Of a stretch of 64,000 bases of DNA, positions 47,188 to 64,000 are shown piece by piece (the first letter of the stretch is position 1; each line of letters opens with the position of its first letter). Source of the DNA: Oscillospiraceae bacterium (GTDB lineage: Bacteria; Bacillota; Clostridia; Oscillospirales; CAG-272); the NCBI GenBank assembly GCA_015064505.1, contig SVSB01000006.1, positions 1,233 to 65,232 on the forward strand, in the 5' to 3' direction. The notes beneath the pieces were generated by a model, which was given only the letters and a program-made list of their open reading frames with translations, made no database searches and was not told the origin of the DNA. A program made the position numbers and the translations under genes.

Positions 47188-47218
47188 AAAAAAGGGAGGA
47201 CGGCACGCGCCGTCCTCC
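47188..47218 (-). terminator. intrinsic terminator after the small ORF
   Basis: Minus strand has GGAGGACGGC-GCGT-GCCGTCCTCC followed by CUUUUUU. Confidence 0.8.
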
Positions 47219-47233
47219 TTAAATAAACGGCAA

Positions 47234-47377
47234 TCAGCTTAAAAGCCAATCAAGTGTCTTGCTCTCTATGTTGAAAGCGCTTAATCCGTTATCGGTAAGG
47301 ATCTCGGAGGGTTGAAGCTTTACGATCTCTACCTCGGGGCGGAGGTACTTCTGCTTTTGCATATTCGTGTTTTTCAT
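47234..47377 (-). CDS. unannotated 47-codon ORF, function unknown
   Basis: Manual translation gives MKNTNMQKQKYLRPEVEIVKLQPSEILTDNGLSAFNIESKTLDWLLS. GGAGG (47385-47389) lies 7 nt upstream of ATG 47377. The ORF starts 13 nt after the GLUG gene stop and is followed by a terminator. It is below the ORF-track length cut-off. Confidence 0.5.
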   Translation of the reverse strand: MKNTNMQKQKYLRPEVEIVKLQPSEILTDNGLSAFNIESKTLDWLLS

Positions 47378-47389
47378 TATATAACCTCC

Positions 47390-49984
47390 TTACTCTGCAG
47401 CCGCCGCAACAGCGGAGCAGCCGTAATTATAGAGAGCGCGAGCAAGCTTTGCAGCACTGCTCAGCTCCTCACCGTCCATATCGTTCTGCATCTCGTAGAT
47501 AAAGGATGCAACGCTGTAGGTAACGGTCTGAACAACGGTATCGCCCGCCTTGAGAACGGCAACCACGTTATCGTTATAGTCCGTGGCGGAAATATCGTCG
47601 CTGTATACGATGTAAGAGCTGCCGTAGGGGGTGATCTCCGCCTCGTTGCCGTTCACCAAAACGGTAATACCGTCAGCGGAAGGAGCGGTGAAGGTGAAGA
47701 ACACTCTGTTCGTATAATCAAAGCGCACGCCAACGCTGTTGAACTTAACGCCGTCAACTGCCGTACCTGCAACGGAGCTTGCCGCGTATACGGAATTATC
47801 AAGCTCTTCAAAATCGGATATACCGCTGATATCCACGTTTGCAAGGCTGTCAAGATTAAAGCTTCTGTATTCCTGTGCGGCGGCACCGTATGCAAGAATA
47901 TCCTTTGCAAGCTGCTTTACCGCCTCGGATGTAGACTCAGCATCTATAAGATTCTCGCAGTATCCGCGCACGGACTGTCTTGCGGAATCGACGAGAACGT
48001 CATCAACGTAAAGGTCAACCGTTATAAGCTCGGTCATTGACTGGGGAGCGATCGCCTTGAGGGTGTATTTATACATAAGACCGTTCTCAACTGCCTCTGC
48101 CTCGTAGGTCTCGTCTGCATAGGTAAATACCACCTTGGTGCTTGCAGGGTCAACGCCTTCTGCAAGAGTTGCAATGGCATTGAAGGAAAGGTCCGTGCCA
48201 ACGGAAAGGCTGATACCGTAGATTCCCGTCTCAACCTTTGCCTCTGCGGTGTTTTTCAGCGCAGTAAGCTCGGGGTAAGTGGTTCCCTGCTCCCACGCAC
48301 CGGAAGAAGGCTCGCCGTTCAGCATGGGAGTAACTACTCCTGCGGCGATAAAGCCGGATGTCATAGAATTATATCCGGCTGCATCGGTGGTAACGGATCC
48401 GGCAGTGGCGTGACCCACGGCGTTCTGAACCGTGCTTCCCTGCTTTGCCGATCCTGCAAGGTAATAGCAATCGGATGCGGTGAGGGGGAAGCTTGCGTGA
48501 GGGTATCCTATTATACTACCGATAAGCTTAGTGGGTCCGTAAATGGTTCCTGCATTAAAGGAATTGCCAAGAGTTATTTTCCACTTTGTACTTGCAGTGG
48601 CTCTCTGTGCAAATCCGATGATTCCGCCAACGGCACGGTCTGCCGTAACGTTGCCGTAATTTGCGCAATTGCTGACGGTGTGTACGCCGTCCTGAAGAGT
48701 TCCCACCACGCCGCCAACGTAATAGCCCGTACCGCTGACAGCGCCGTAGTTTGCGGAATTCGATACCTCAAGGGTAAGTCCTGCCGCACCGCTTACAAGG
48801 CTTGCATAACCGAGAATACCGCCTGCAAAGCTGTTGCTTGACGTTTTTGTAGCGACTACGTTTCCGCTGTTTTTGCAAGCCGTTATGGTAACGTCGCCGC
48901 CTTCTATCCATCCTACGATTCCGCTGTCATATCCGCCTGCGGTGGTAGACATAGTACCGGTGTTGGTGCAGCCTACAACGTTAAGCTCGTAACTTGCGGA
49001 GTCGCTAATAGAAGCAACGCCAACGATTCCGCCAAGTCCCGCCCTTGCATTCAGATCAACGGTATTGGAGCAGGAAACGATATTTATAGCACCGTTGTTT
49101 TCAACGACCTTGATGCTTGCGTTACCGCTGGAGATCCAACCGACGATGCCACCGACTCTTCCCTTATCCGCACCGTCTGCGGAAGCGGAAAGAACCTTTG
49201 CGGAGTTGGTGCAATCAACCACGTTGATTACGAAATCATCGGAATTGAAGTAAGATATCTGTCCGATAAGTCCGCCGCTCTGAGCGTAATAGTTGCCGGT
49301 AGCGGAAACGTAATTCACTGTACCGGAAGCGGAGCATCCGATAACGTTCACAGTTCCGTCGGTTACGGGGTTAGTCGTATTAGTTTCTCTGCCTGCGGTC
49401 AGAATACCGATAAGTCCGCCAACGCCAAAGGTGCCCTTCGCGGTTCCGTCGGAATGGCAGTTAACGATATTTACGGTTCCCGTTGAATAGGGGAACACGT
49501 AGCCTGCGAGACCGCCGACTGCCTGCGCGCCGGAGGTTACGGAAACGGAGGCGGTGACGTTTTCGATGAGAGTGTTGCCGCTGACAACGCCCACAACGCC
49601 GCCGTTACCTCTGCTGGAGGTGGTGGAGGCGGTAACGGTGCCGCTTACGGAGAAGTTCTTGATCTCGGCGTTATGTACCCAGCCGAAAAGTCCCTGGTGC
49701 TTCTCACCGGAGAGGTTAAGTCCCGTAATGCTGTGACCCATACCGTCAAAATACCCGGTAAAGTGCTCTTCTGCACTACCTATGGGGCTTTGGGTCTTGC
49801 CCGTAAGGTCAATATCAGCTGTGAGATAATAAGCACCGCTCCACATTTCGGGGGTGCTCATCAGCTCAACGAGCTGATCGGCGCTTGATATGGGCTTTAC
49901 TGCTGTTGCAGAAGCGGTCACGGGAATCACCGCAAGAGCAGTTACCAATGCAAGCACCATTGCAAGTAGTTTCTTGGCTTTCAT
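47390..49984 (-). CDS. secreted GLUG-motif repeat protein (paralogue 1)
   Basis: Start set at ATG 49984 (MKAKKLLAMVLALVTALAVIPVTASA) behind AAGGAGAA. More than 9 GLUG-like turns are present (GGLAGY, GGLIGIL, GGLIGQI, GGIVGWI, GGIVGVA, GGILGYA, GGVVGTL, GGIIGFA). There is no C-terminal anchor. Confidence 0.75.
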   Translation of the reverse strand: MKAKKLLAMVLALVTALAVIPVTASATAVKPISSADQLVELMSTPEMWSGAYYLTADIDLTGKTQSPIGSAEEHFTGYFDGMGHSITGLNLSGEKHQGLFGWVHNAEIKNFSVSGTVTASTTSSRGNGGVVGVVSGNTLIENVTASVSVTSGAQAVGGLAGYVFPYSTGTVNIVNCHSDGTAKGTFGVGGLIGILTAGRETNTTNPVTDGTVNVIGCSASGTVNYVSATGNYYAQSGGLIGQISYFNSDDFVINVVDCTNSAKVLSASADGADKGRVGGIVGWISSGNASIKVVENNGAINIVSCSNTVDLNARAGLGGIVGVASISDSASYELNVVGCTNTGTMSTTAGGYDSGIVGWIEGGDVTITACKNSGNVVATKTSSNSFAGGILGYASLVSGAAGLTLEVSNSANYGAVSGTGYYVGGVVGTLQDGVHTVSNCANYGNVTADRAVGGIIGFAQRATASTKWKITLGNSFNAGTIYGPTKLIGSIIGYPHASFPLTASDCYYLAGSAKQGSTVQNAVGHATAGSVTTDAAGYNSMTSGFIAAGVVTPMLNGEPSSGAWEQGTTYPELTALKNTAEAKVETGIYGISLSVGTDLSFNAIATLAEGVDPASTKVVFTYADETYEAEAVENGLMYKYTLKAIAPQSMTELITVDLYVDDVLVDSARQSVRGYCENLIDAESTSEAVKQLAKDILAYGAAAQEYRSFNLDSLANVDISGISDFEELDNSVYAASSVAGTAVDGVKFNSVGVRFDYTNRVFFTFTAPSADGITVLVNGNEAEITPYGSSYIVYSDDISATDYNDNVVAVLKAGDTVVQTVTYSVASFIYEMQNDMDGEELSSAAKLARALYNYGCSAVAAAAE

Positions 49985-50063
49985 GGTTTTCTCCTTTATT
50001 TTTTTATTTTTTCCATTTTTGGTTTCAAGATTTATGAAACGCACGATGCGTCCGGTAACGGCG

Positions 50064-50099
50064 AAAAGCTGAAAGGGGTTTTACCCGTTTTCAGCTTTT
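50064..50099. terminator. terminator ending the GRE-to-SDR operon
   Basis: AAAAGCTGAAA-GGGGTTTTACCCG-TTTCAGCTTTT extended hairpin, 5 nt after the SDR stop. Confidence 0.8.
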
Positions 50100-50104
50100 G
50101 CCTT

Positions 50105-50842
50105 TCAGCAGTTAAGTCCGCCGTTTATATAAATAGGTTGTCCCGCAATGCGGTTGCTCTTATCGGAAGCAAGAAACACTGCAAGCTCCGCTATCTCCTC
50201 GGGATACGCCATTCTGCCGAAGGCGCTGGGGAAATCCGCAGGCTTTCCTTCGGTCCAGTTCATCATCTCCGTGGTAACGGGACCGGGAGCTATATTCTGC
50301 ACCACTATGCCGCGCTTAAAGAACGCCTTTGCGTATCCCTGGCACATTCCCATAACGCTCCATTTGGAGATACCGTAGGGATGCACGCAGGGCTGATGAC
50401 CCGTTTCCGAGCTTATGACGATTATCTTGCCCTTAACTTCCCTGTCCGCGTTCTTTTCCTCAAAGAATTTGCAGGCGGTCTGCATACAGAAGAAAGCGCC
50501 CTTTACGTTGATGTTAAAAATGGTATCCCATTCCTCTTCGTCAACGTCGTAAAGTCTTTTTCTTCCGATAACGCCCGCGTTGTTTATCACAACGTCGATG
50601 CCGCCCATAAGAGAGCTTGCCTCAGCAAACACCGCAGGGCCTTTTTTTACGTCCGAAACGTCCCAGACGATACAGTGGGCAACACCGCCGCTTTTCACGA
50701 TGGAGTCTTTCACGGGTTCAAGGGTCTCTGCCCTTCTGCCCGTTATTACTATTTGCGCGCCCTCGTAAGCACACTTACGGGCAATAGCCTCTCCGATTCC
50801 ACGGCTTGCTCCCACGATCAGGATCTTTTTACCTTTAAGCAT
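50105..50842 (-). CDS. SDR family oxidoreductase
   Basis: 245 aa. The cofactor motif is GASRGIGEAIA, with NNAG also present. The catalytic Tyr-x3-Lys region is PYGISK. The start overlaps the GLUG-2 gene end by 8 nt. Confidence 0.85.
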   Translation of the reverse strand: MLKGKKILIVGASRGIGEAIARKCAYEGAQIVITGRRAETLEPVKDSIVKSGGVAHCIVWDVSDVKKGPAVFAEASSLMGGIDVVINNAGVIGRKRLYDVDEEEWDTIFNINVKGAFFCMQTACKFFEEKNADREVKGKIIVISSETGHQPCVHPYGISKWSVMGMCQGYAKAFFKRGIVVQNIAPGPVTTEMMNWTEGKPADFPSAFGRMAYPEEIAELAVFLASDKSNRIAGQPIYINGGLNC

Positions 50843-52625
50843 CTTGATCTCTTACTTTCTTCTTAAGGATCACCGCCGCAAACGTAGCCGCCATAGCCGC
50901 AAATACCAGAATGATAAGAGTAGCATCACCCGTATCTGCCGCAGTGGTAGACTGGGAAGCATCTGTAGTCGTTGGAGCGTCAGTAGTTGTTACCGCATCG
51001 GTAGTGGGAGCCTCGGTGGTGGTAGGAGCCTCGGTTACTGCATTGCCGGTGGTAACGGGTGTGTCGTCGCCCGTGCCCTTTGCAACGGTGCGAAGGGTAG
51101 GAACGGAATTTTCAATCACCCACACGTTTGCAAAATCAAAATTTTTGAAGGTTTCTGCCTTTGCGGCATCTGCAGAGGAGACTGCAGTTGCAAGCAGATC
51201 CATCTCGGAATCCAAAAAGTAACAATCGTTTACGGTATTAAGACCGTTGGGTGCGGCGGAAAATCCGCACTTAACGCCAACAAAGTCCGTAACAACGAGC
51301 TTGCCGCCGTTGAAGCAACGGTTTGCAACAACGTCGCTGTCAGAGAAAGCAAATATGCCCGCAGCACCCGCAAAGGCGGTAACGGTGCCGTAGTTTGCAC
51401 AATCGTTAAAGGTGAAGTTCATACCGGCGGTGGAGCTTGCCTTGATAGCGTGGCCCATAATACCGCCCGCGTGCTGACCCGTTGCCTCAACGGAGCCCAG
51501 ATTCGCGCACTGCTCGAAGAGGTAAACGCCGCCCTTGGTTCCGCCAAGGATACCGCCTACGTAATCTGCGCCGCCCGAAACGATGCCCTCGTTTACGCAT
51601 CCCTTGATATTGACCGCAAAATCGCTGCGATACTGGAAGGTTACGTATCCGATTATACCGCCCACGTAGGAGGAACCAACGATCTCCGCGGTGTTCTTGC
51701 AGTTGATTATATTTACGGTACCGCCCGCGGGATTATCTAAGGAGGTCTTTACGTTGCTGTCCATCCAGCCGACAACGCCGCCAACGCGGGTCTTGGGTGC
51801 AACGCCCGTAAGAGAAGCGTTATTCACGCAATCGGAAACGGTTACTTCGAAGCCGTGGGCAACGTAGGTAAAGATATTACCTATAAATCCGCCCGCCTGA
51901 CCTGCCGCAGAGCCGGAATAGTAGATGACCTCTCCGTTTCCGCTGCAGCCTTCAACGGTTATCTTCGTATTAGCGAGGGGAGTTTTCGTTTCTTCCACGC
52001 CGCCGGCGGAAAGAATTCCGATAAGACTGCCAACGCCTCTGCCCGCCTCGATTTTTCCATAGGCGTGGCAGTTTTTGATGGTAAGAACGTCGTTATCGGC
52101 AATACAGCCTGCCTTACCCGCAAGACCGCCTACCGCCTGTGCGCTTGCAACGCCGAGAGCGGAAACGTTAACGTATGAGGTTACGTTCTCAAGGGTGCTA
52201 GTGCCGCGAAGAGAACCGACGATACCTGCGGCGTATACCTCCGTTCCGCTCGTGGAGGTCTCCTCAACCTCACCCTTTACGGTGAGGTTCTTGATTGTAA
52301 CGTTTTCAGCCTTGCCGAAAAGTGCCTGATACTTGCTTCCGGAAAGATCAAGTCCGGAAATGGTCTTGCCGTTGCCGTCGAAAACGCCCGTAAAGGGGGT
52401 TTCCGCGTTTCCGATAGGTGCCTGACCGCTTCTGCCTGTAAGGTCTATATCTGCGGCAAGATAGTAAGTGCCGCTCCATTTGGAGCTGTCACTCATAAGA
52501 GAAATGAGCTCACCGGCATCGGAAATTGCAGTGCCTTCCGCCGCACTTACCCCAAAGGGTACTGCAAAAAGAGCAAGCATGGCCGCCAGAAGTATTGCCG
52601 TGATCTTTCTTGTTTTCATAGCCAT
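50835..52625 (-). CDS. GLUG-motif repeat surface protein with Thr/Pro-rich stalk and C-terminal TM anchor (paralogue 2)
   Basis: It has a signal peptide, and an alternative start at 52619 gives better RBS spacing. The N-terminal ~100 aa are colinear with paralogue 1. GLUG turns and a TTEAPTT stalk follow. The tail is LIILVFAAMAATFAAVILKKK. Confidence 0.75.
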   Translation of the reverse strand: MAMKTRKITAILLAAMLALFAVPFGVSAAEGTAISDAGELISLMSDSSKWSGTYYLAADIDLTGRSGQAPIGNAETPFTGVFDGNGKTISGLDLSGSKYQALFGKAENVTIKNLTVKGEVEETSTSGTEVYAAGIVGSLRGTSTLENVTSYVNVSALGVASAQAVGGLAGKAGCIADNDVLTIKNCHAYGKIEAGRGVGSLIGILSAGGVEETKTPLANTKITVEGCSGNGEVIYYSGSAAGQAGGFIGNIFTYVAHGFEVTVSDCVNNASLTGVAPKTRVGGVVGWMDSNVKTSLDNPAGGTVNIINCKNTAEIVGSSYVGGIIGYVTFQYRSDFAVNIKGCVNEGIVSGGADYVGGILGGTKGGVYLFEQCANLGSVEATGQHAGGIMGHAIKASSTAGMNFTFNDCANYGTVTAFAGAAGIFAFSDSDVVANRCFNGGKLVVTDFVGVKCGFSAAPNGLNTVNDCYFLDSEMDLLATAVSSADAAKAETFKNFDFANVWVIENSVPTLRTVAKGTGDDTPVTTGNAVTEAPTTTEAPTTDAVTTTDAPTTTDASQSTTAADTGDATLIILVFAAMAATFAAVILKKKVRDQDA

Positions 52626-52655
52626 TCTCCTTTATTTTTCATTTTTCGGATCCGC

Positions 52656-54164
52656 TCAGTCTGCCCAACTGTCTATTACCTTACGGTATCCGTTGTTTAC
52701 TGCTTTGATCTGCTGCTCAGCAATGGTGGAGTTTGCCGCATAGATGCTTGCAAAATTGCTTTCCTTTGCGCGGAACATATTAAGAAGCAAGGAGTTCATA
52801 TTGCCGATACGGTGAAGCTGACCGATATCGTAAATGAAGCTGTCGTAAATAATATCAAGCATTGCAATGCTCTCTTCATCGCGGAAGTAAGTGCCCTTGA
52901 TGGTCTTCTCATATACCGCTGGTCTTACTATAGTGCGTCCGTAGTACGCAAGCGCTTCTGTTACGATGGAGGTGAAATCCATATCCTCCTGAACGGAGGG
53001 CAGGCAAAGGAACTGGGAGTTATAGGTGGGGATGGTGCTGTAGTAACGGGTCTGCTCAGAGTTAAGCATGGGGAACGGAAGAATACCGAAGTCGGAATCC
53101 ATCTCTCTCATGCTTGAAGTATTAAAGGTGGAAGTTGCCCAGAAGAGAGCCTGGTCGTTTGTCCACTTCTCGCGCACGTTACCGTTATTGCTGTAGCGCT
53201 GATACTGAATAGCGTAATCAGTATTGTAAGCAACGTTACCGAACTTTTCAATTACGGAAAGCACCTTATCGTTGTAGATGGTAAGCTCGAACTCACCGTC
53301 CGCATTGATGGAGGCAACCTTCTGTCCTGCGGCACTGATCATACCGAGGATGGAATCGTCCCAGGCGTAAAGACCGTAGCGATCTTCCATATCCATGGTT
53401 CCGTTACCGTCAAGATCCTCGGAAACCGCAAGGCAAAGCTCTGCAAACTTATCAAGGGTCCACTTTTTATCAAGCACCAGCTTATAGGGATCCTCGCCGT
53501 TAAGCTCTTCTCTGCCAAGTGCCTTATTATAGAATATTACGTAAGTACAGTCGGACTTTGCGGCAGTTATGTCGCCCTGGGTAAAGAATATATTACCCAT
53601 TACCTGCAGATCGGTATTTGCGTTCTGATCCCACCAGGATTTTTCCAGATCCATATACTTTGCCTCGGCGAGAGGAACCAGATACGAGCTGTACGCAAGG
53701 GTGGAAACGTCCATACCGCCGATAAGACCGATATGATAATCCGCATCGTTTGCGTCAACGGCACGGGAAACGCGCTTGTAGCCTGAGCCGTTACCTACGC
53801 CGGACTTATTTTCGTCTATGACTATGTTAATAACGACCCCGAGAAGATCCTCTACCGTGGTCTTGCGCATATATTGCGCCTGATCAAGCACCTCCGTGCC
53901 CGCATCGGTAAAGCTGAAATCGTCGTAAGCTACCTGACCTGCGGAAATAACTACGAACTCCGCATCGTCAAACTTCCCCTCGGGGATCTCAAGCTTTTCT
54001 TCGGGCGCCGAAGTAACGGAGCTGTCGGTGGTATCGGAGGGGGATATTGCGGGAGCATCGGTCACCGTGGGCTCCGTGGTGGTAACGGTGGTGCCGCCGC
54101 CTCCGCAAGCAACCACGGAAAGGGCGGTGATCATAACCAAAATCAATGCGATTATCTTTTTCAT
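52656..54164 (-). CDS. extracellular solute-binding lipoprotein (large family-1 sugar SBP), orphan
   Basis: The lipobox is ALSVVACGG. It is 502 aa with a composition typical of carbohydrate ABC SBPs. No permease or ATPase genes are adjacent. Confidence 0.7.
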   Translation of the reverse strand: MKKIIALILVMITALSVVACGGGGTTVTTTEPTVTDAPAISPSDTTDSSVTSAPEEKLEIPEGKFDDAEFVVISAGQVAYDDFSFTDAGTEVLDQAQYMRKTTVEDLLGVVINIVIDENKSGVGNGSGYKRVSRAVDANDADYHIGLIGGMDVSTLAYSSYLVPLAEAKYMDLEKSWWDQNANTDLQVMGNIFFTQGDITAAKSDCTYVIFYNKALGREELNGEDPYKLVLDKKWTLDKFAELCLAVSEDLDGNGTMDMEDRYGLYAWDDSILGMISAAGQKVASINADGEFELTIYNDKVLSVIEKFGNVAYNTDYAIQYQRYSNNGNVREKWTNDQALFWATSTFNTSSMREMDSDFGILPFPMLNSEQTRYYSTIPTYNSQFLCLPSVQEDMDFTSIVTEALAYYGRTIVRPAVYEKTIKGTYFRDEESIAMLDIIYDSFIYDIGQLHRIGNMNSLLLNMFRAKESNFASIYAANSTIAEQQIKAVNNGYRKVIDSWAD

Positions 54165-54187
54165 AGCGTTTACCTTTCTTTTTTCGC

Positions 54188-55075
54188 TTATCTTAATGCG
54201 CAGGAAAGCACGGACTGCACGGCGGCAAGCTCTTCTTTTGAAGGTACCGCCGTTTCCGGCATGGGATAATCCATACCAAGTGCCTCGTACTTCGTGCGCG
54301 CAAGATCGTGATATGCAAGTGCCTTAACGGCTCTTACGTTCTTAAGACCGGAAATAAATTCCGCGATCTTCTCCGCTTCCCCGTCGTTTTTGCCGGGAAC
54401 GTACGGATATCTTATCTCCATCGGCATTCCGACAGAGTCAAGATAAAGGATATTTGAGATGATTTGCTCGTTTCCCATACCTGTGAGCTTTCTGTGCAGA
54501 TCGCTGTTCATTGCCTTGATATCGCAAAGGAACGTATCCGCATACCTTGCGGCACGTTCAACGTTTCTTCTGTCGACGGCAAGAGAGGTATCCACCGCCG
54601 TATGTATTCCCTCTTTTTTTAGCAGGGAAAGGAGCTCACAAAGGAAATCGATCTGCAACAGAGGCTCTCCGCCCGAAACGGTAACTCCGCCGCCCGTCTT
54701 TTCGTAAAACTTACGGTCCAGAAGCAGCTCGGGAAGGATATCGGCGGCGCTTATCGCCTCGCCGAATATCTTATTTGCCTTTTCCGCACACACGGCTTCG
54801 CATTTTCCGCAGACCTTGCAGTTTTCTCTGACGAAATAATGCTTCCCGTCAATAATTATCTGTGCTCCGTTCGGACATACGGCAACGCAAGCGCCGCAGC
54901 TTACGCATTTGTGAGAGTAATGAGCAAGCTGTGGGGGTGCGAACAACCCCTCGGGGTTATGGCACCAGAGGCACCTCAGCGGGCACCCCTTTAAAAACAG
55001 CGTCGTGCGTACTCCGGGTCCGTCGTGTATCTCAAGGCGCTTTATCGCAAAATATACGCCCCTTGGATCACTCAT
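54188..55075 (-). CDS. glycyl-radical enzyme activating protein (radical SAM)
   Basis: The radical SAM motif is GCPLRCLWCHNPE. Two ferredoxin-type clusters are CVSCGACVAVCP and CKVCGKCEAVC. The start overlaps the GRE stop by 8 nt. Confidence 0.9.
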   Translation of the reverse strand: MSDPRGVYFAIKRLEIHDGPGVRTTLFLKGCPLRCLWCHNPEGLFAPPQLAHYSHKCVSCGACVAVCPNGAQIIIDGKHYFVRENCKVCGKCEAVCAEKANKIFGEAISAADILPELLLDRKFYEKTGGGVTVSGGEPLLQIDFLCELLSLLKKEGIHTAVDTSLAVDRRNVERAARYADTFLCDIKAMNSDLHRKLTGMGNEQIISNILYLDSVGMPMEIRYPYVPGKNDGEAEKIAEFISGLKNVRAVKALAYHDLARTKYEALGMDYPMPETAVPSKEELAAVQSVLSCALR

Positions 55076-57272
55076 ATTTTCCTCCCGAAGCTCGCTTCAA
55101 AAAGTCTGACTGAACTGCAGGATGCATATTGACGAAATACTCGTTCCAGCCGCAAACGCGCACCTGGAGATCGGGATAATTCTGCGGATTCTGCTTTGCA
55201 TCAAGAAGCGTTTCTATATCGATAACGTTGCCCTGAATGCAAAAGCCCTTATTCTCGAAGAATATTTTTATTACGGAGCACATAAAGTCAAGTCCCGCTT
55301 CGCCCTCCACTGCCGTGGGGTGCATCATAAAGTCGCAGGGTGCACCGTCCGCCGCATCCGTAAAGTCGATGGCGGCAAAGGAAGCAAGAAGACCGGAAAG
55401 TCCGCGATGCTCACAGCCGTTGACGGGGCGGATGTTTTTGGAAAGAGGCGCTCTTGCTCCGCGTCCGTCGGGACTTGCGCCCGTGTTTCTGCCGTAGCGC
55501 TCCGCAAAATTCACGGAATCGCCGCCCATTCTGTAAACGCCGCCGTTTGCGGTGGGCTTACCAACTATCTGCTTTGCCATAAAGGCGTATATCTCGGCGG
55601 CAAGATTATCAGCCTCGGGCTCGCCGTTGCCCCATTTGATCTTATCGCTCTTTATCTCAGCACGGAGAAGCTCCGCGCCGCGCCAGTTGTTCTTAAGTAT
55701 CGTGTGCAGCTCCGCAAGAGTGACTCGCTTCTGTTCGTATACGAACTTTTTAACTGCAAGAAGCGAATCCACCGTGGTTCCCAAAGCCATTATCTTAACG
55801 CTTTCGTTTGCAAGGGGAAGTCCACAGTCAAATACGTCGCGTCCGCGCTCAACGCAGCTTGAAAAGGTGGTTGAAAGAAGCGGAGCGGGATTTGTTTCGT
55901 AGGAATAGGGAGCCTGCTTATTTATGTTGTCTATGGTAAATTCCGCAAACTTGCGCAGGTAATCGTAAAACGTTTCAAGGAATTCTTCCCAGGTCTTCGG
56001 CTCCTCGCTTCTTCCGAAGAAATAGATCTTCAGAAGCAGGTCCTCACCGCCCGTAACGGCATATTCAACAGCCTTTTCCATATTGATCCAGGAGGAGCAG
56101 ATATGCATCTCCTCCACGTTGGGAATAAAGGTCTCGTTACAGCCGATGGGCAGATAATTCTTCGATACCTCTCTGCCGATGCCGATCTTTTCATAAGCCT
56201 CAAACACCACCTCGTCGTTATAGAGGATAATGGAGGAGGCACCCGCACGAGTCATTTCCATCAGCTTGCGGAGTATGACCTCGGGCATATTTTTGCTGCA
56301 TCTTACGTGGAGCTTGGGGTTATGGATCTTCAGCTGCTGATAGATATCAAGAAAATCAAGTATCATTCTGCAGTTTACGGAATCCTCGCTCCAATCGGTG
56401 CCGATGCAGAGAGGCTGATCCGCATAGCGCTCCTCTGCCGCTATCTTTAGCAGGAAATAACCGAACATGGTCTTGATTTCCTCGCGGCTCATTCTTCCGG
56501 AGCTTATGTCCGCCTCGTAAAAGGGCGCCCAAAGCTGATCCACGGAACCAAGAGAACGAATTCTCTCCCTTGCAACCTCTCCCGCCGTCAGCATAACGTG
56601 CTGAAGGCAAAGCACCTCGTAAAGAGTTTCCGGTCTGCGTTCCGTAAGGGCGGCGTATATATCCGCCTGCTCATCCATTCCCTTTTCCCTGCAAGCAGAG
56701 GAAAGGCGGTTTAAATAAATCCGAACCGCGTCAAGGGCGATCTCGGCACTCTGATAAAAAACTCTTTGTCTGTCGGTAAGCTCACCCGAGGCTTCCTTTG
56801 CAGCTTTAGCATCCTCAAGACGGGATACAAGACCCACGAAGCCCGTTTCCACTACGGGACGCCAGTCAAACACCGCGTGCCATACGTCAAGATCGGGGAT
56901 GCCCATTCCCGTAAGAGCGCACAGCTCGCGCATTCTGCGCACACCGGGAATGCGCTTATCAAGGACTGCGCGGTAGTGCTCGGTGGAAAGCTTTTCAAGT
57001 ATTCCCGCGTGAGCGACTTTATCTATAACAACGCCGTTGCATATTTTATCGGGAAACGGGGAACGGGTATTTATGTCAAGCATACCGTTTTCAAAAAGGT
57101 ACCTGAAAACTTCAGCGAATACAACGGGGTAAGGACGGCTTACGTTATCTTCAAAATGCTTGCGCATTTCCGCCATCATCACATCAGGGCTTTTGCCGCT
57201 GTTTTCATCCCATTTCGCATTGATGTACTCGTGCCTGTTAATTGCTTTGTCTTCAAACAGTCTGTCAAACAC
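55068..57272 (-). CDS. glycyl-radical enzyme, divergent, substrate unknown
   Basis: 734 aa. A GTG start lies 6 nt after GGAGGG. The C-terminal glycine-radical loop is LQVRVCGWNEYF. ASPDGRGARAPLS is also present. The thiyl loop candidate is PIGCNET (Cys-x-Glu spacing). Confidence 0.8.
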   Translation of the reverse strand: MFDRLFEDKAINRHEYINAKWDENSGKSPDVMMAEMRKHFEDNVSRPYPVVFAEVFRYLFENGMLDINTRSPFPDKICNGVVIDKVAHAGILEKLSTEHYRAVLDKRIPGVRRMRELCALTGMGIPDLDVWHAVFDWRPVVETGFVGLVSRLEDAKAAKEASGELTDRQRVFYQSAEIALDAVRIYLNRLSSACREKGMDEQADIYAALTERRPETLYEVLCLQHVMLTAGEVARERIRSLGSVDQLWAPFYEADISSGRMSREEIKTMFGYFLLKIAAEERYADQPLCIGTDWSEDSVNCRMILDFLDIYQQLKIHNPKLHVRCSKNMPEVILRKLMEMTRAGASSIILYNDEVVFEAYEKIGIGREVSKNYLPIGCNETFIPNVEEMHICSSWINMEKAVEYAVTGGEDLLLKIYFFGRSEEPKTWEEFLETFYDYLRKFAEFTIDNINKQAPYSYETNPAPLLSTTFSSCVERGRDVFDCGLPLANESVKIMALGTTVDSLLAVKKFVYEQKRVTLAELHTILKNNWRGAELLRAEIKSDKIKWGNGEPEADNLAAEIYAFMAKQIVGKPTANGGVYRMGGDSVNFAERYGRNTGASPDGRGARAPLSKNIRPVNGCEHRGLSGLLASFAAIDFTDAADGAPCDFMMHPTAVEGEAGLDFMCSVIKIFFENKGFCIQGNVIDIETLLDAKQNPQNYPDLQVRVCGWNEYFVNMHPAVQSDFLKRASGGKYE

Positions 57273-57305
57273 GGAAATCCCTCCGAATTTTTATATTTCT
57301 GATTT

Positions 57306-57334
57306 ATTATAGCAACGCCTCTCAGAAAAATAAA
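57306..57334 (-). promoter_or_regulatory. candidate promoter of the GRE operon
   Basis: Minus strand has an extended -10 TGCTATAAT (TATAAT at 57306-57311). The -35 TTTATT, 17 nt upstream, is weak. Confidence 0.4.
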
Positions 57335-57465: not shown

Positions 57466-58245
57466 ATGGTGTTTTTCGAAAATGTACAAATTTCCCGCAC
57501 AAGATGGTGCTCAAAGCTCTATCTGAACGCTTTGCACCTCACCCGCTTCAAGCCGAGAAAAAGCCATGCTTTTGTGGTTTTCCTTACCGGATGCGTGAAA
57601 TATACTTATCCGAACAATAACGTGATAATCGCAGAGCCAAACTCCTTTCTTTATCTTCCTCAAGGCGTTGAATTTGATTTTCAACCGATTCAGCCGTCAA
57701 CCTGCCTCGTAGTCAACTTCCACACTTCGGGAAAAACGGATTTTGAAGCCTTTGGCGCAAATTACAGAAACATCACGAAGATACGCGATTGTATGCTTGC
57801 GGCAGTAAACGCATATAAAAACCAAAATATCGGCTATAAAGCAGAGATATTTTCGGAGATATACAAAATAATCTCCCTGGTGCAGAAAAACGAGATAAAC
57901 GACTATGTTTCCCCCGAGCAACGCAAAAAGCTGCAGCCCGCAATAGAGCATATCGAAAAGCACTTTCTTGACAGCGATATAAAGATCTCCGAGCTTGTGA
58001 AGCTTTGCGGAATAAGTGAAAAATACTTCACCACCCTTTTCTCTCACTATTATCAATCGGGAGCAAAGCAATATATAATACACAAGAAGCTTGAATACGC
58101 CCGCGCCCTGCTGGAATCCACCGCATCTTCGGTAACCGAAATATCGGAGGCCTGCGGCTTTTCATCGGTATACTATTTCTCCAAGCTATTCAAGCAACGC
58201 ACGGGAATGACTCCGACGGACTACAGACGCATCAATATTTACTGA
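57466..58245 (+). CDS. AraC family transcriptional regulator
   Basis: 259 aa with a cupin-like N-terminus. The C-terminal HTH is VTEISEACGFSSVYYFSKLFKQRTGMTPTDYRR. It is divergent from the GRE operon. Confidence 0.85.
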   Translation: MVFFENVQISRTRWCSKLYLNALHLTRFKPRKSHAFVVFLTGCVKYTYPNNNVIIAEPNSFLYLPQGVEFDFQPIQPSTCLVVNFHTSGKTDFEAFGANYRNITKIRDCMLAAVNAYKNQNIGYKAEIFSEIYKIISLVQKNEINDYVSPEQRKKLQPAIEHIEKHFLDSDIKISELVKLCGISEKYFTTLFSHYYQSGAKQYIIHKKLEYARALLESTASSVTEISEACGFSSVYYFSKLFKQRTGMTPTDYRRINIY

Positions 58246-58252
58246 AAAATGA

Positions 58253-58290
58253 ATCAGGCGCACTCTTCGGAGTGCGCCTGATCTTTTTAT
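58253..58290. terminator. bidirectional terminator
   Basis: ATCAGGCGCACTC-TTCG-GAGTGCGCCTGAT followed by CTTTTTATTTT. It sits between convergent genes. Confidence 0.8.
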
Positions 58291-61200
58291 TTTGCTTTGC
58301 GTTTTTTCACGATCACGAAAACGGCAACTGCAACAACGACAATCACCGCCGCAGCCGCACATATTATAACCGTCGCATTCCCGTCGGAAGCATCTCCGGG
58401 AATAACGGGATCGACCGCAACAGGTGCGTTCTCATCAACGGTCAGCGTAAACGTGCCGCCAAGACCGTTAAAGGCGTAATTGCCGGAAAGGGTAGCCTTT
58501 ACGGTGTAAGTTCCGTCCTCGGTGGGAAGTCCGTCCGTGAAGTCGGTGCCGTTTGCGGAATAGCTGTAAGCTATATCACCGTAGCTTTCATCATAGCTCT
58601 TACCGCCGTAAACCTTGATATCAAGCTTTCCTTCTTCCGCTTTTCTGACGGTATAACCCTCGTCAACTCCAAGGAAGTTGCCGTCCCAGTTATCAAATCC
58701 GCCTATCTTCTTAAAGAGGGGCGTGCCGTTGAGCATTACCTCAAAGGCGGTGCTGAGGGGTGAAGGAGAATAATTCTGACCCACGTGGAAGCCGTCGGAA
58801 TCAACGGTGTAAGGCTCCATAAAGCAGTAACGGTATCCCGAGGTATCGGGGCCGAAGTACGCGTGGTACAGAAGGTAATCCGTCTTTCCGTCCGGGGAGG
58901 TCATAAGGTTAGGACCGCCAACGCCGCAAAGCTCACTGTTCTTCTTGAATATGGACTCCGGCTTCTTCTCCCAATTATTGATATCGAAAAGATCTCCGCC
59001 CTTAAAGGTCATCTGACCCAGGTTATATCCCGGAGTCCAGTATCCGCTTGAAGCATAAACCACGAACAGCTCGTTGTTTTCACTGACGATGGGCGTAAGT
59101 CCCTCTATAACCGCAGGGTACCATATTCCCTGCGCGGAGCTGTAGCCGTAGCCCTCGCGCTCTCGGGGGAGCTCGGGAATTATAAGATCAAGGATGGGTC
59201 CCGTAAGAGTCCAAGGATTCTTCATTTCCGCAAGGCGCGCGATCTGCATAAAGCCGTCCGTGCCTCTGCCCCTCTGCTCAACCCAAAGGGAATAGACCTT
59301 TCCGTTGTAGCGGAATACGGACTGACCCGCCGTCCATTCGGCAAAGTTAACGTCCTTATCCGTCTCGTGCACGAGTCTGACGGGGATGTTTTCCTCGCCC
59401 GTTTCGGGGTTTACCCAAACTCCCTGAAGATCGTTTGTTTTGCTCTTCATCAGATAACTGCGTCTGTTCTCTCCGTCCACGTATCCGCTGTCGCTTACAG
59501 AGGGCTTATAGGTCGAGAAGAGATGGTAATACCCCTCGTATTCGGGTCCGAAATCATCTGCGGAGAAATACTGCAGCTCCGTTGGCCAGATGTTCTCATC
59601 TCTTCCCTCAAGCGCCGCGGAAACGGCGGGGTCCTTTGCGTTCCACACTCTCTCGGGTGCGGAATAACCAAGATCGGGAAGATTTGCCGCCTTATAGACC
59701 GCAAGGGCGGAGCCCGTGGTATATACGTAATAATACATACCGTCAACCAGTATGGCTCTGGGGTCTGCCGCTCTGTCTATGGGGTTCGTATAGGTTATGG
59801 TACCCTTCAGTTCAGATGAGATATCAATATTCTCACCAACGGTAATTTTGGATTCCGCGTTACCGCCGAAGAGCTCGTCGCCGTCTATATCCGTGAGGTG
59901 ACCGTAATCACCGCCGTTGACCGCAACGTTGAATTTTCCGTTCACAACGCAGGTACGTGCTGTTGCAACGGCAACCTTGCAGTAGAAGGTACCGCCGTTC
60001 AGAGTGATATTTATCGTACCGCTGAAGCTCTCTCCCTCCGCAGATGCGGATGAACCGAACGCACCTGCATAAAGCGTACCGCCGTTTACGGTAAGGCTGG
60101 CGCTTCCCTGCTGTTCTCCGCGTCCTGCGGCAATTACCTGTCCGTAGAATTCACCGCCGCTTATCACGGTCTCAAACTTTACTCCGTTATGCTTGGTGCG
60201 CAGAGAGTTTCCGCCCATCACCGTATTCCACTTGCCGCTGTTTACGGCAAGAGAGGAGCCGTAGGCATCAGAGCCCTCGGAGCCCGCCAAAAGATTGGGG
60301 TAGAGGCTGACCGAAGCAAGGCAGGAGGACTGAATTCCCTCTCCGATCACCGCATCGTATCCGTTAAAGATGAAATAAACGCTGTCTGCCGCGGCTTCTA
60401 TAGCCAAATTTTCAAGCTTTACGTCACAGTTGAAGGAAAGGTCTGCACCGAGGGAGAGCTTTGCCGCGCCCACGTTTACGTAATTCACACCGTCATAAAC
60501 GGAGGTCACGGTGATAACTCCCTTGGATTTTGGTAAATGGGTGTCGTCTGCAACCGTAACGTTACCAACAATCACCACTGTTCCGCCGCCGTCGCCCAAA
60601 AGGGCAAACGCATCGGAAAGGGAGCCCACAGCCATTGCAGCAGAGCTTCCGTTGCCCGTTGCGCCGTCCTTTACGAATACAACGCGCTCCACCTCTCCGC
60701 CGCCGAATACACCGCGGAGCTTTTCTACGGTCTTTTCGTCCGTATTTTCGGGATCGTATTTAAAGTGCTTTTCTCCGTTTATGCCGTTAAGAACGGTTTC
60801 CCCTATATTACCGCCGCTGTATCGCAGAACCACTGCACCTGAAACACGGGCGTATTCTATGGCGTTTACCGTACCACCGGAAACGTCTATGCTTGCAGAG
60901 CCTGCAGAGCCGCCCTTTCCTGCGGTTATTATCTTGTTAACGGTACCGCCGCTTACGGCAACGGTCACGCTCTCCGTAACGCCCTTGCCGCTTGTTGAGC
61001 CGTACACGGTCTTTACGTTACCGCCCGAAACGGAAATGCTTGCGCTCTTGTAGGTAACGCCGTTATCTCCGCCACCGATGCCGCAGACCTCGTTAAAGGA
61101 TCCGCTTTCGATGATTATCTCGCCGGTCGCACCCGCCTTGATGGCACCGGAGCGCTTTCCGCCGTAAGCATTGAAGCTGCCCTTCGTATCAAAGCCCTTG

Positions 61201-63602
61201 CCAAAGGTAAGCCTGTTGCCGTTTGCGTAAAAATCGCCCGCGCCCTTCAGGGTAAGCTTTTCAAAGCCCGTGTTGCCCGCAAGCTCGTACGCACCGTTCA
61301 GGGTAAGGGTGCTTCCGTCAACGCCCTTGATAAGGATCGCGCCGCTATGCTTCGGCTCCTTGAAATCGCTTATTCCGTAGTCGCCCATCAGCACCACGTT
61401 TCCGCCGCCGTCGGCAATTATATTCATTGCCTTTTCAAGATCTCCCGTGGGACTTTCCTCGGTCTTACCGTCACCGCTTGCGCCCTGCTTTACGAATACG
61501 GTACCGAAGGTGGTCACGTCCGTGAAGAAGTAGAAACGGGATACCCAATCCGCATTGTAGTATACGGAGTTATATGCAAGCTTTATCTTACTTCCCGCCG
61601 CAAGCTGCTTTATTGCGTCGCTTCCGTAGGTATTGGTTATATTTATTACCTTTGCGGTATTAAGAGTGAGGGTAGTATCTCCCAAGGTGTTATTGAGAAT
61701 AACCGCCGAGATCGTACCGCCGTTAAGGATCAGATCCGCATCACCGTCAAGACGGCGGGTCTGGTCGCCTGCGGCGTAAAGCTCACCTATCTGACCGCCG
61801 TTTATTTCAATAACGGTACTGCCGGAATAGTGATTATAATTTGAAGCACCGTAAAGCTGCTCGATCTGACCGCCGTTTACGGTTATGTAGGAAGTACCCG
61901 TAAAGGTATAGGTTGTAATTCCCTTAACGTGAGTAAAGCCTATTACTTTTTTGAAGCTTCCTCCGTCTATGGTTACGTGGGAATCGAGATCTGCCGCGTA
62001 CGCGTTTGTCTCAGGAGCAAAATAACCGCCGATGGCGTAAAGAAATCTCGTTGTGCCCTTCGTGTGCTTTGCGCTGAAGCCCGCACCGAACTTAACTTCA
62101 TTAAAGCACGCCGCAAGATAAACGTCAGTTACGTCCGAGGTAATGACCACGTTATCAAAGGTGGTGTCACCGCCAAGGCAATAGGTGCTCTTCTTCGGAA
62201 AGTGAAGAGCGGCGCCGATAGTACGGTAATCCTTGCCGCCGTATACGGAGGTGATAACTATGGGTTTAAAGGTGGTGGGAGCCGTGTATCTGGGTATACC
62301 GTCAACGTCAACCATGCCCTCGCCCATTACGTATCTATCCATAACGACAACGTTACCGCCCGAATATTTCAGATACTCAACTGCCTTCGTAAGCGTCTTG
62401 AAGGGTGCACTTTCCGTACCTTCGTTCGTGTCCTTGCCTCTGCTTGCGCTAAGGAAAACGGTCTGTGGCTCAACCTCTTCCTCCGTGATCTCTATTTTGG
62501 AAAGATCCGCAAAGAATACGAGATCGGAAACCTTAAGGCTCTTATAATCCTTGTAGCTCTCCGTTTCCTTTGCGCCGTTAAAGCTCTTTGCAAAGCTCTC
62601 GGTAAAGGTCTCGGAATTATAGAACACTTTTTTAATACTGAATTGAGAGAGATACGTTATTTCTTCATTTGCGTAGGTAACGGAGCATTTGCCCGTTATC
62701 TTACCGCCGTCAAGAACTATTGCGGCATTACCCACCACGTTGTTTACGTTGAGGGTGCCGATATTTCCGCCGCCCATAAATATGAGGGCAGAGCCGTTAA
62801 GCCTGCGGGTGGAATCTCCGCCTGCGTAAAGCTCGCCGATACTTCCGCCCGTCATAATAAATTCAAGACTGCCGCTGTAATGATTTACAGCCGAGGCACC
62901 GTAAACGCGGTCGATATCTCCTCCGTTCACGGTAATATGAGCAGTACCCGAGAACGTGTACGTTCCTTTACCCGTATACAGGGAAAAGCCGATAACGCGC
63001 TTAAAGCTACCGCTGTTTACCGTTACACGGGGATCAAGCTTTGCATCCATATTCATATTCTGCGGTGCAAAGTAACCGCCGACGGCGTAAAGGAATTTAT
63101 CCGTACTCTTTGCGCCCACGGAAACGAATCCGCTTGCAAAGGTCAGCTCGTTGAAATTAGCAACGATATAGACCTCTTCTCCGGTGCTTGAAAGAGTAAG
63201 CTTGTCAAAGACCGTATCTCCACCGAGGGAGAATGCGGTTTTTTGGCTAAACGCAAGCTCTGCTCCGTCTTGGCGCCAGTCCTTACCGCCGTATACGGAA
63301 GTAAAGGTCACCTTGCCGTTATATTTCGGCGCGGTATAAACGGGCACCTCGGAAACGAGCACCGTTTTATCGGCAAACTCGTATCTGTCAGTGATAACGA
63401 CGGTACCCCCGTCCTTAAGTGCCTCAAGTGCCTTCGTGACGGTCTTAAACGGAGCGCTTTCCGTTCCGCTTGCGCTGTCGCTTCCCTTTGAGGCGCTGAC
63501 GAACACCACCTCTTCATCTGCCGATACGGCAAAAGAAAGAGCGGCAAGGGCAAGCACCAATATAAAAAGCAACGCAAAAATTCTGTTTTTCTTCAACAGC
63601 AT
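58287..63602 (-). CDS. 1,771-aa membrane-anchored surface protein: four copies of an unnamed ~270-350-aa module, a GH43-like beta-propeller region, an Ig-like region and a C-terminal TM anchor
   Basis: It has a signal peptide. The modules lie at nt 62463-63509, 61503-62462, 60687-61502 and 59838-60686. The GH43-like signature NPIDRAADPRAILVDGMYYYVYTT starts near nt 59795. The tail is VIICAAAAVIVVVAVAVFVIVKKRKAK. Confidence 0.8.
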   Translation of the reverse strand: MLLKKNRIFALLFILVLALAALSFAVSADEEVVFVSASKGSDSASGTESAPFKTVTKALEALKDGGTVVITDRYEFADKTVLVSEVPVYTAPKYNGKVTFTSVYGGKDWRQDGAELAFSQKTAFSLGGDTVFDKLTLSSTGEEVYIVANFNELTFASGFVSVGAKSTDKFLYAVGGYFAPQNMNMDAKLDPRVTVNSGSFKRVIGFSLYTGKGTYTFSGTAHITVNGGDIDRVYGASAVNHYSGSLEFIMTGGSIGELYAGGDSTRRLNGSALIFMGGGNIGTLNVNNVVGNAAIVLDGGKITGKCSVTYANEEITYLSQFSIKKVFYNSETFTESFAKSFNGAKETESYKDYKSLKVSDLVFFADLSKIEITEEEVEPQTVFLSASRGKDTNEGTESAPFKTLTKAVEYLKYSGGNVVVMDRYVMGEGMVDVDGIPRYTAPTTFKPIVITSVYGGKDYRTIGAALHFPKKSTYCLGGDTTFDNVVITSDVTDVYLAACFNEVKFGAGFSAKHTKGTTRFLYAIGGYFAPETNAYAADLDSHVTIDGGSFKKVIGFTHVKGITTYTFTGTSYITVNGGQIEQLYGASNYNHYSGSTVIEINGGQIGELYAAGDQTRRLDGDADLILNGGTISAVILNNTLGDTTLTLNTAKVINITNTYGSDAIKQLAAGSKIKLAYNSVYYNADWVSRFYFFTDVTTFGTVFVKQGASGDGKTEESPTGDLEKAMNIIADGGGNVVLMGDYGISDFKEPKHSGAILIKGVDGSTLTLNGAYELAGNTGFEKLTLKGAGDFYANGNRLTFGKGFDTKGSFNAYGGKRSGAIKAGATGEIIIESGSFNEVCGIGGGDNGVTYKSASISVSGGNVKTVYGSTSGKGVTESVTVAVSGGTVNKIITAGKGGSAGSASIDVSGGTVNAIEYARVSGAVVLRYSGGNIGETVLNGINGEKHFKYDPENTDEKTVEKLRGVFGGGEVERVVFVKDGATGNGSSAAMAVGSLSDAFALLGDGGGTVVIVGNVTVADDTHLPKSKGVITVTSVYDGVNYVNVGAAKLSLGADLSFNCDVKLENLAIEAAADSVYFIFNGYDAVIGEGIQSSCLASVSLYPNLLAGSEGSDAYGSSLAVNSGKWNTVMGGNSLRTKHNGVKFETVISGGEFYGQVIAAGRGEQQGSASLTVNGGTLYAGAFGSSASAEGESFSGTINITLNGGTFYCKVAVATARTCVVNGKFNVAVNGGDYGHLTDIDGDELFGGNAESKITVGENIDISSELKGTITYTNPIDRAADPRAILVDGMYYYVYTTGSALAVYKAANLPDLGYSAPERVWNAKDPAVSAALEGRDENIWPTELQYFSADDFGPEYEGYYHLFSTYKPSVSDSGYVDGENRRSYLMKSKTNDLQGVWVNPETGEENIPVRLVHETDKDVNFAEWTAGQSVFRYNGKVYSLWVEQRGRGTDGFMQIARLAEMKNPWTLTGPILDLIIPELPREREGYGYSSAQGIWYPAVIEGLTPIVSENNELFVVYASSGYWTPGYNLGQMTFKGGDLFDINNWEKKPESIFKKNSELCGVGGPNLMTSPDGKTDYLLYHAYFGPDTSGYRYCFMEPYTVDSDGFHVGQNYSPSPLSTAFEVMLNGTPLFKKIGGFDNWDGNFLGVDEGYTVRKAEEGKLDIKVYGGKSYDESYGDIAYSYSANGTDFTDGLPTEDGTYTVKATLSGNYAFNGLGGTFTLTVDENAPVAVDPVIPGDASDGNATVIICAAAAVIVVVAVAVFVIVKKRKAK

Positions 63603-63626: not shown

Positions 63627-64000
63627 CTATACCTTCAGCTTTACGGGCTTGGACGTGTTTTTCGCCACAAGGCTGACGTATCGTTCCGAGTCTTCTCTTG
63701 ACGGAACGGGGAATTCGGTAGCGTCAAGCCCCACCTTGGGATATTTGGGATTACCCGCTCTGTGATAGGGCAGTATCTCCACGGAGCAGACGGCAGAATT
63801 CTCATCTGCAATTCTGCCAACGGCGGCAAAATGCTCTTCTCTGTCATTTACCGTGGGAATAACGGGAACGCGCAGTATAACACGCGCCCCCACGGCGGAA
63901 AGCAAAGAAAGATTCTTAAGTATCAGGCTGTTATCGGCGCCCGTAAACTCTCTGTGCCTTTCTCCGTCCGTTTCCTTGATATCGTAAAGGAAAAAATCCG
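63627..64000 (-). CDS. second glycyl-radical enzyme activating protein, C-terminal part (5-prime end outside the window)
   Basis: The reading frame stays open to the window edge. Manual translation gives DFFLYDIKETDGERHREFTGADNSLILKNLSLLSAVGARVILRVPVIPTVND...ILPYHRAGNPKY. This is colinear with the C-terminal half of the activase at 54188-55075. Confidence 0.75.
   Translation of the reverse strand, partial: DFFLYDIKETDGERHREFTGADNSLILKNLSLLSAVGARVILRVPVIPTVNDREEHFAAVGRIADENSAVCSVEILPYHRAGNPKYPKVGLDATEFPVPSREDSERYVSLVAKNTSKPVKLKV

Follow-up and report, generated by a model that had tools for sequence, protein, structure and literature searches.

The GRE gene and the unit that it heads

We analysed a stretch of 64,000 nt (hereafter the window) from the genome of an Oscillospiraceae bacterium (assembly GCA_015064505.1, contig SVSB01000006.1, positions 1,233 to 65,232), in which a minus-strand gene encodes a glycyl radical enzyme (GRE) of unusual sequence. 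The open reading frame (ORF) at 55068-57272 encodes 734 aa, runs from a GTG start codon to a TAA stop codon and was assigned as a coding sequence (P0001) by the ORF call, Pfam and NCBIfam profiles, HMMER and an AlphaFold2 model (pLDDT 91.6). A GGAGG ribosome-binding site (57280-57284, minus strand), seen by direct reading, lies 7 nt 5' of the GTG. A candidate extended -10 element, TGcTATAAT (57306-57314, minus strand), also read directly and not listed by a consensus promoter scan, is the predicted promoter of the GRE operon; its -35 element is poor. The N-terminus fits the family consensus from residue 1, and the length of 734 aa is therefore genuine. The protein matched the Pfam families PFL-like (PF02901; 254 bits, cut-off 24, E 3.9e-75), which represents the ten-stranded barrel, and, at its C-terminal end, Gly_radical (PF01228; 69 bits, cut-off 22, E 5.4e-19). 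We concluded that the ORF encodes a real, full-length, intact and oxygen-sensitive GRE.

The next gene on the minus strand (54188-55075) begins 8 nt inside the end of the GRE gene, overlapping its stop. It encodes a GRE-activating radical S-adenosylmethionine (radical-SAM) enzyme of 295 aa, recognized by TIGR02494 (306 bits, cut-off 174) and by its motifs, namely CX3CX2C and two ferredoxin-like (auxiliary) Cys clusters. It is followed on the same strand by genes for a 502-aa protein resembling a solute-binding protein (SBP-like; 52656-54164; weak match to SBP_bac_1, E 0.021), a 596-aa protein without a Pfam family (50835-52625), a 245-aa short-chain dehydrogenase/reductase (SDR; 50105-50842; adh_short_C2, E 1e-47) and an 884-aa protein, again without a Pfam family, which is the last long gene of the unit (47390-50044). 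A terminator scan of the window found the first strong intrinsic terminator 3' of the GRE at 47195-47218 (minus strand; 10-bp stem with 8 GC pairs) and no strong minus-strand terminator between the GRE and 47218, so that the GRE probably heads a unit of about 10 kb comprising these six genes. Divergently oriented from it is a plus-strand gene for an AraC-family regulator of 259 aa (57466-58245; Pfam). A bidirectional terminator hairpin of 13-14 bp (58252-58283) separates the end of the AraC gene from the stop of a gene for a 1,771-aa protein.

Catalytic residues, fold and radical loop

The GRE was aligned by HMMER with five solved GREs: glycerol dehydratase (GD, 1r8w), HypD (6vxc), propanediol dehydratase (PD, 5i2a), PflD (8yjo) and PFL2 of A. 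fulgidus (2f3o). In all five alignments, Gly708 (codon 55149-55151) of the Gly loop Q703-F713 (QVRVCGWNEYF, 55134-55166, minus strand) falls on the radical Gly, and Cys378 and Glu380 of the Cys loop P375-T381 (PIGCNET, 56130-56150, minus strand) fall on the C-x-E motif. A reading of the same DNA made earlier without database searches (the sequence-only reading) had stated that PIGCNET keeps the Cys-x-Glu spacing, and the alignments bear this out. It had also named a misplaced or missing radical Gly or catalytic Cys as the mark of a pseudo-enzyme; here both residues are at their expected positions. His132 (56877-56879, minus strand) was aligned by HMMER to the general acid His164 of GD, and through the family alignment it also lines up with the GxGH His of the eliminases (HypD His160). 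The roles of the C-x-E motif and of this His are described in a 2026 GRE review (PMC13450708) and in the HypD paper.

An AlphaFold2 model, built from a family alignment of 24 sequences, reached a pLDDT of 91.6 and a pTM of 0.90. Foldseek matched it to essentially all C-x-E GREs, among them PD, GD, HypD, HpzG, PflD and CutC, with TM scores of 0.83-0.86 at 18-23% identity. VIA-align superposed the model along its whole length, with about 700 of the 734 residues, on structures of 773-837 aa (Z 35-41), which means that the shortness of the protein results from trimmed loops and a shorter N-terminal region and not from a lost domain. The sequence-only reading had noted that the protein is shorter than most PFL-fold GREs; 734 aa is the norm of its own clade (see below).

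The radical loop reported by the sequence-only reading, QVRVCGWNE, is present at residues 703-711, and it was said to break the classical signature PS00850. We confirmed this entry, by name and length, as GLY_RADICAL_1, a pattern of 9 positions. If read as [STIV]-x-R-[IVT]-[CSA]-G-Y-x-[GACV], the pattern fails at Q703, W709 and E711; in this form it matches 0 of the 131 sequences of the clade described below and 11 of 35 other GREs. The fingerprint used in the field, RVxG[FWY]x6-8[FL]x4Qx2[IV]x2R (PMC13450708), permits Trp after the Gly. Applied strictly, it matches none of the 131 clade members and 21 of the 35 other GREs, and its mismatches in the GRE are two conservative deviations, M716 for [FL] and F724 for [IV]. 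Since the profile hidden Markov models and the fold both place the protein among the GREs, this failure was treated as a sign of too narrow a pattern and not as exclusion from the superfamily.

The single substitutions pointed out earlier are all there, but none is without precedent. Trp does stand in place of Tyr (W709), as it does in 2f3o (RVAGWSAYF), and the fingerprint allows it. Glu does follow two positions later (E711), and an acid at Gly+3 is known from HypD (GYSD). Asn does replace Val between Cys and Glu (N379); it also occurs in a few other GREs, and within the clade it marks only a sub-clade of 15 tips, the wider clade having Tyr. The radical loop is still atypical.

The clade with Trp after the radical Gly

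Searches of the protein database returned about 46 clusters of 720-772 aa, whose identity to the GRE grades smoothly from 100% down to 31%; below them the score drops sharply to generic GREs (about 27% identity, less than 190 bits). The median length of 44 database members is 734 aa. A scan of 185,579 species genomes for Q[VI]RVCGWN yielded at least 598 stretches, at least 586 of them confirmed relatives. Among the matches listed, most are metagenome-assembled genomes of gut or rumen Clostridia (Oscillospiraceae, Christensenellaceae and Acutalibacteraceae), and a few come from Lentisphaeria, Armatimonadia and Bacilli. The exact RVCGWNE DNA pattern was found in only one of 400 other sampled genomes of the source order; the distribution is therefore patchy and not lineage-wide.

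A tree was built of 166 GREs, drawn from 79 loci, the database hits and the source genome's own paralogues; its outgroup is what these searches returned, and monophyly holds within that sample. The 131 sequences in which Trp follows the Gly all group together as a single clade (the G-W clade; support 1.0), and no sequence without this Trp falls inside it. Its sub-clades are WNE, with 95 tips, and WN[V/A], with 32; a small group of 4 tips has WNV/WNW. The GRE sits in the 15-tip sub-clade defined by G-C-N-E-T (support 0.998), which is sister to the sequence of locus L001 and, at the next node, to a 19-tip G-C-Y-E-S group that includes the source genome's own paralogue on contig C22.

The catalytic residues are kept throughout. 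The radical Gly and the catalytic Cys are invariant in the G-W clade, and Cys378 is present in all 166 of the analysed sequences that align at that position; Glu380 is kept in 130 of the 131 clade members, and His132 in 131/131 as well as in 32 of the 35 other GREs. Beyond these, the clade has 18 positions with residues conserved to at least 90% among its members and seldom found in other GREs, among them D129, R239, N613, D647, Q703, C707, W709, N710 and F724. Q703, W709 and N710 are invariant in the 131 members and C707 is found in 95%; R239 is invariant only in the G-W clade, and R237 is nearly invariant. The WNE sub-clade has E236, R237, R282, R581, D585 and E711 in addition, where the WN[V/A] sub-clade has instead V282, K581 and F585.

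Several of these residues lie on two strands located by alignment to the solved GREs, beta1 (E236-R237-I238-R239, 56556-56567, minus strand) and beta8 (R581-V587, RMGGDSV, 55512-55532, minus strand). R237 aligns with HypD Asp278 and GD His281, D585 with GD Tyr640, and V587 with HypD Thr645. As GRE active sites are formed by the barrel strands together with the Gly and Cys loops (PMC13450708), we read the clade-specific residues on the two loops, beta1 and beta8 as a remodelled predicted pocket that would be strongly polar, charged and aromatic; statements on the pocket come from sequence alignment to solved structures.

The source genome (2.46 Mb) harbours seven PFL-like GREs, on contigs C22, C23, C31, C35, C63 and C71, in which the residue after the radical Gly is Trp in three, Phe in three, Val in one and Tyr in none. 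In the copy on C31 the loop around the radical Gly is RLWGVSAHF, and the Cys loop, C-Q-D, lacks the Glu. G-W paralogues thus number three in this genome, and up to three occur per 20 kb elsewhere. The GRE gene was found in animal gut or faecal metagenomes from 13 studies, including a bovine-gut run with a 16-kb contig of about 98% identity. One gut metatranscriptome contained contigs of 95-99% identity that cover 47300-57208 but not the regulator; a contig of 1,526 nt among them spans the SBP-like gene, the activase and the 3' end of the GRE. These contigs are a weak hint that the GRE unit is expressed. RNA contigs of run X20 and parts of DNA runs, with 90-95% identity and unlike flanks, were taken to come from relatives and were not counted as evidence.

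With seven GREs in one genome, redundancy is conceivable, and the GRE could then be an inactive or decaying paralogue. We consider this hardly credible: the frame is intact and has a ribosome-binding site, the catalytic residues are invariant over homologues that are 31-87% identical, an activase and a regulator are dedicated to the gene, and the gene appears in the metatranscriptome contigs.

Characterised relatives, genomic neighbourhood and predicted substrate

None of the curated family models claims the protein. The NCBIfam equivalog models, with cut-offs of 994-1150 bits, gave 237 bits for HpfG (NF048009), 232 for HypD (NF043068, cut-off 1100), 205 for the PflD type (NF007437, cut-off 1109), 196 for HpsG (NF048011), 176 for CutC (TIGR04394), 134 for IAD (NF033718), 122 for HPAD (NF033715) and 86 for PFL (TIGR01255). 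The top sequence match in the PDB is GD, with 22-24% identity in structure-based alignments. All the characterised GREs catalogued in a June 2026 review (PMC13450708) were compared and none matches the GRE, and our literature search found the RVCGW motif in no paper. The GRE is not a member of a CHARACTERISED family. The suggestion of an uncharacterised subfamily has thus held: the protein groups with no characterised GRE by tree, NCBIfam score or PDB match, and the G-W clade is a monophyletic, well-delimited and biochemically unstudied subfamily within a known superfamily. Nothing here contradicts the known logic of GREs, and the existence of such a clade would not surprise a specialist.

The closest solved structure is A. 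fulgidus PFL2 (2f3o), with a VIA-align Z of 40.6 and, over 700 residues, a root-mean-square deviation of 2.7 A; the matches that follow (BSS, HypD, CutC, PD, PflD and GD) score about 3.6 Z lower. Like the GRE it has Trp after the radical Gly and is compact (776 aa); its own Cys loop is C-V-E. It differs in having only 22% identity and, by alignment, Ile, Ser and Leu at the positions of R239, N710 and Q703. This archaeal protein has a debated function, none being assigned (PMC13450708), and so no function can be transferred from it. HypD is comparable in fold and sequence (E 7.8e-58, Z 36.9). As in the GRE, an acid stands at Gly+3 (GYSD; GWNE in the GRE) and an Arg at the position of R581. However, its essential Asp278 is R237 here, its Ser334, Thr645 and Tyr450 are not conserved, its family model is far from reached, and no proline-pathway genes lie near the GRE.

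The best sequence matches are GD of C. butyricum (1r8w/1r9d; 1r8w, E 7.5e-61) and PD of R. inulinivorans (5i2a), which are also among the best fold matches. They share with the GRE the radical Gly, Cys-x-Glu, the general-acid His and the type of activase, and probably the logic of radical 1,2-elimination. It could thus be argued that the GRE is a compact B12-independent glycerol or 1,2-diol dehydratase, the aldehyde product of which is reduced by the SDR encoded downstream in the same operon. This is improbable. The score with the broad PFL2/GD subfamily model TIGR01774 is 288 bits against a cut-off of 678; the substrate contacts of GD are replaced (His281 by R237, Ser282 by I238, Asp447 by C392 and Tyr640 by D585); the G-W clade stands apart from PD-like sequences in the tree; and the gene context is another one, with no microcompartment, aldehyde dehydrogenase or 1,3-propanediol dehydrogenase genes nearby and an SDR in only 7 of the 85 related loci compared.

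YbiW and PflD (8id7, 8id0), the only characterised GREs acting on sugars (PMC13450708), are a precedent, in concept, for carbohydrate catabolism that includes a radical step. Both are among the structural matches (Z 34-36) and have a C-x-E motif, with the Glu acting on a sugar hydroxyl. Together with the sugar-related context of the gene, this would fit a sugar-phosphate ring-opening isomerase like those of 'anhydroglycolysis'. However, YbiW and PflD act on phosphorylated substrates and are encoded with a phosphotransferase system (PTS) or aldolase, and PTS, kinase and aldolase genes are not recurrent neighbours of the clade; the PflD-type score is far below its cut-off, and beta1 reads S-S-L in PflD but R-x-R in the clade. 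We regard such an isomerase as unlikely.

The neighbourhoods of the 85 related loci were compared, with genes called by a crude greedy longest-ORF procedure. What recurs is a triad made up of the GRE, its activase (58 loci) and a divergently oriented AraC-type regulator (61 loci). Beyond this triad the neighbours differ from locus to locus, but most of them are connected with glycans. Giant surface proteins of more than 1,300 aa bearing a glycoside hydrolase family 43 (GH43) domain lie near the GRE in 12 loci, and the SBP-like protein of about 500 aa (cluster 4) occurs in 8, recurring in the closest clade. Other neighbours are SDR (7 loci), Gfo/Idh/MocA (7), GH2 (6), SMP-30 lactonase (5), GDSL esterases (5-6) and GH140 apiosidase-like genes (4), as well as a SASA esterase. 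In the 35-tip clade around the GRE, the only recurrent partners are the GH43 giants and the SBP-like gene.

This comparison also bears on the possibility of a radical sugar-acid dehydratase of the aldonate or uronate type, in which the clade-invariant beta1 Arg would bind the carboxylate. It is suggested by R239 and by the nearly invariant R237 at the position of HypD Asp278 and GD His281, by an SMP-30 lactonase in one operon with G-W GREs in loci L070 and L071, by an SDR-lactonase pair in L021, L028 and L029, and by carboxylate transporters near the source genome's two other G-W paralogues. On the other hand, the lactonase-SDR loci have their own UxuA-type dehydratase, which weakened the aldonate idea; the lead from the transporters was dropped, as neither the LctP gene (C23) nor the CitMHS gene (C22) recurs in other loci; lactonases occur in only 5 of the 85 loci and none is in the GRE operon; and the Arg may pair with the clade-specific D129, E236 or D647. 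We consider a sugar-acid dehydratase to have a slim chance of being right.

What the evidence best fits is a GRE that is predicted to be functional, cytoplasmic and of the C-x-E type, to which we give a probability of roughly 0.7. It is likely an active GRE of the ketyl-radical elimination or isomerisation class; the C-x-E class covers both 1,2-eliminases and isomerases (PMC13450708). In the proposed mechanism, the adjacent radical-SAM activase would remove the pro-S hydrogen of Gly708 to give a stable glycyl radical, which would move to Cys378. The Cys378 thiyl radical would take a hydrogen from a substrate carbon that bears a hydroxyl, and deprotonation of this hydroxyl by Glu380 would produce a ketyl radical. 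A C-O leaving group next to it (a hydroxyl, ring oxygen or ether oxygen) would then depart with His132 as the acid, and return of the hydrogen from Cys378 would yield a carbonyl product. The divergent AraC-type regulator would probably turn transcription on when the substrate is present.

As to the substrate, the chance that it is carbohydrate-derived appears about even. From the polar, charged and aromatic clade-specific residues and the glycan-degrading neighbours, the most likely class is a plant-glycan-derived sugar, sugar acid or polyol. We tentatively propose, as a possibility that remains doubtful, that the G-W clade converts a sugar or sugar acid from plant cell walls by an undescribed radical reaction. 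Examples would be a ketyl-radical dehydration, a ring opening or, on a rare sugar of the pectic or arabinan type, the removal of an ether or glycosidic substituent. Our literature search found no paper connecting GREs with pectic sugars.

Several points weigh against the explanation that we favour. Charged residues specific to the clade may pair in internal salt bridges without contact to a substrate, and E711 co-varies with R282, R581 and D585 through one split in the tree, not through independent events. C-x-E also occurs outside eliminases, so that the reaction class is deduced. The RNA contigs are assembled and come from one study, in which carry-over of DNA is possible. Lastly, no kinase, aldolase, isomerase or transporter is conserved with the regulator-GRE-activase triad in the 85 loci, and in the absence of a conserved catabolic partner the genomic context leaves the substrate unfixed.

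GREs carry out chemically hard anaerobic reactions in the gut, such as the formation of trimethylamine, H2S, p-cresol and skatole and the use of hydroxyproline. The G-W clade is found beside glycan-degrading genes in hundreds of gut species, from ruminants, birds, rabbits and humans, which makes it a tractable target in the search for a new anaerobic reaction in fibre degradation, and the AraC partner is a built-in biosensor for identifying the substrate. If the proposal is true, the clade would add to 'anhydroglycolysis' a second GRE-dependent route by which carbohydrates are broken down anaerobically, and the expansion of paralogues would correspond to a family of related sugar substrates.

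A lead towards arabinose was followed and dropped. AraA, a ribulokinase above the cut-off and FucI were not detected in the source genome (88.7% complete), and AraA was found in none of 10 genomes of the closest clade. The L-arabinose isomerase N-domain, however, is present in only 18 of 150 sampled genomes of the source order and in 0 of 8 of the family; the absence of AraA is therefore the norm and uninformative on the GRE.

Some further observations concern the surroundings of these genes. The 1,771-aa protein encoded beyond the regulator (58287-63602) is a GH43-bearing surface protein. Directly upstream of it lie a second GRE of another clade (728 aa, RVGGFSAYF, Cys loop GCAEV) and its activase, at 63627-64000 and beyond the window (65754-67940 of contig C71); in relatives, the GH43-type giant follows the G-W GRE instead. 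A type I dockerin at the C-terminus of a 442-aa protein (encoded at 43221-44549) suggests that the organism has a cellulosome-like surface system. The G-W paralogue on contig C23 (locus L088, 4276-9071) forms an operon of GRE, activase and L-lactate-permease-family (LctP) gene, and the locus on contig C22 (L087, 3094-14228) contains, besides the CitMHS transporter and a second SBP-like gene, an Alpha-L-AF_C-like gene and an (alpha/alpha)6 GH-like gene. The trio of lactonase, SDR and UxuA-like dehydratase lies near G-W GREs at 16555-19242 in L021 and at 12199-21757 in L028 and L029, and in the latter two loci two GH140 apiosidase-like genes follow the GRE. In locus L070 (458-9648), two G-W GREs appear to share the single activase of their operon, which also encodes a SASA acetylesterase, an SMP-30 lactonase, a GDSL esterase and an EamA transporter.

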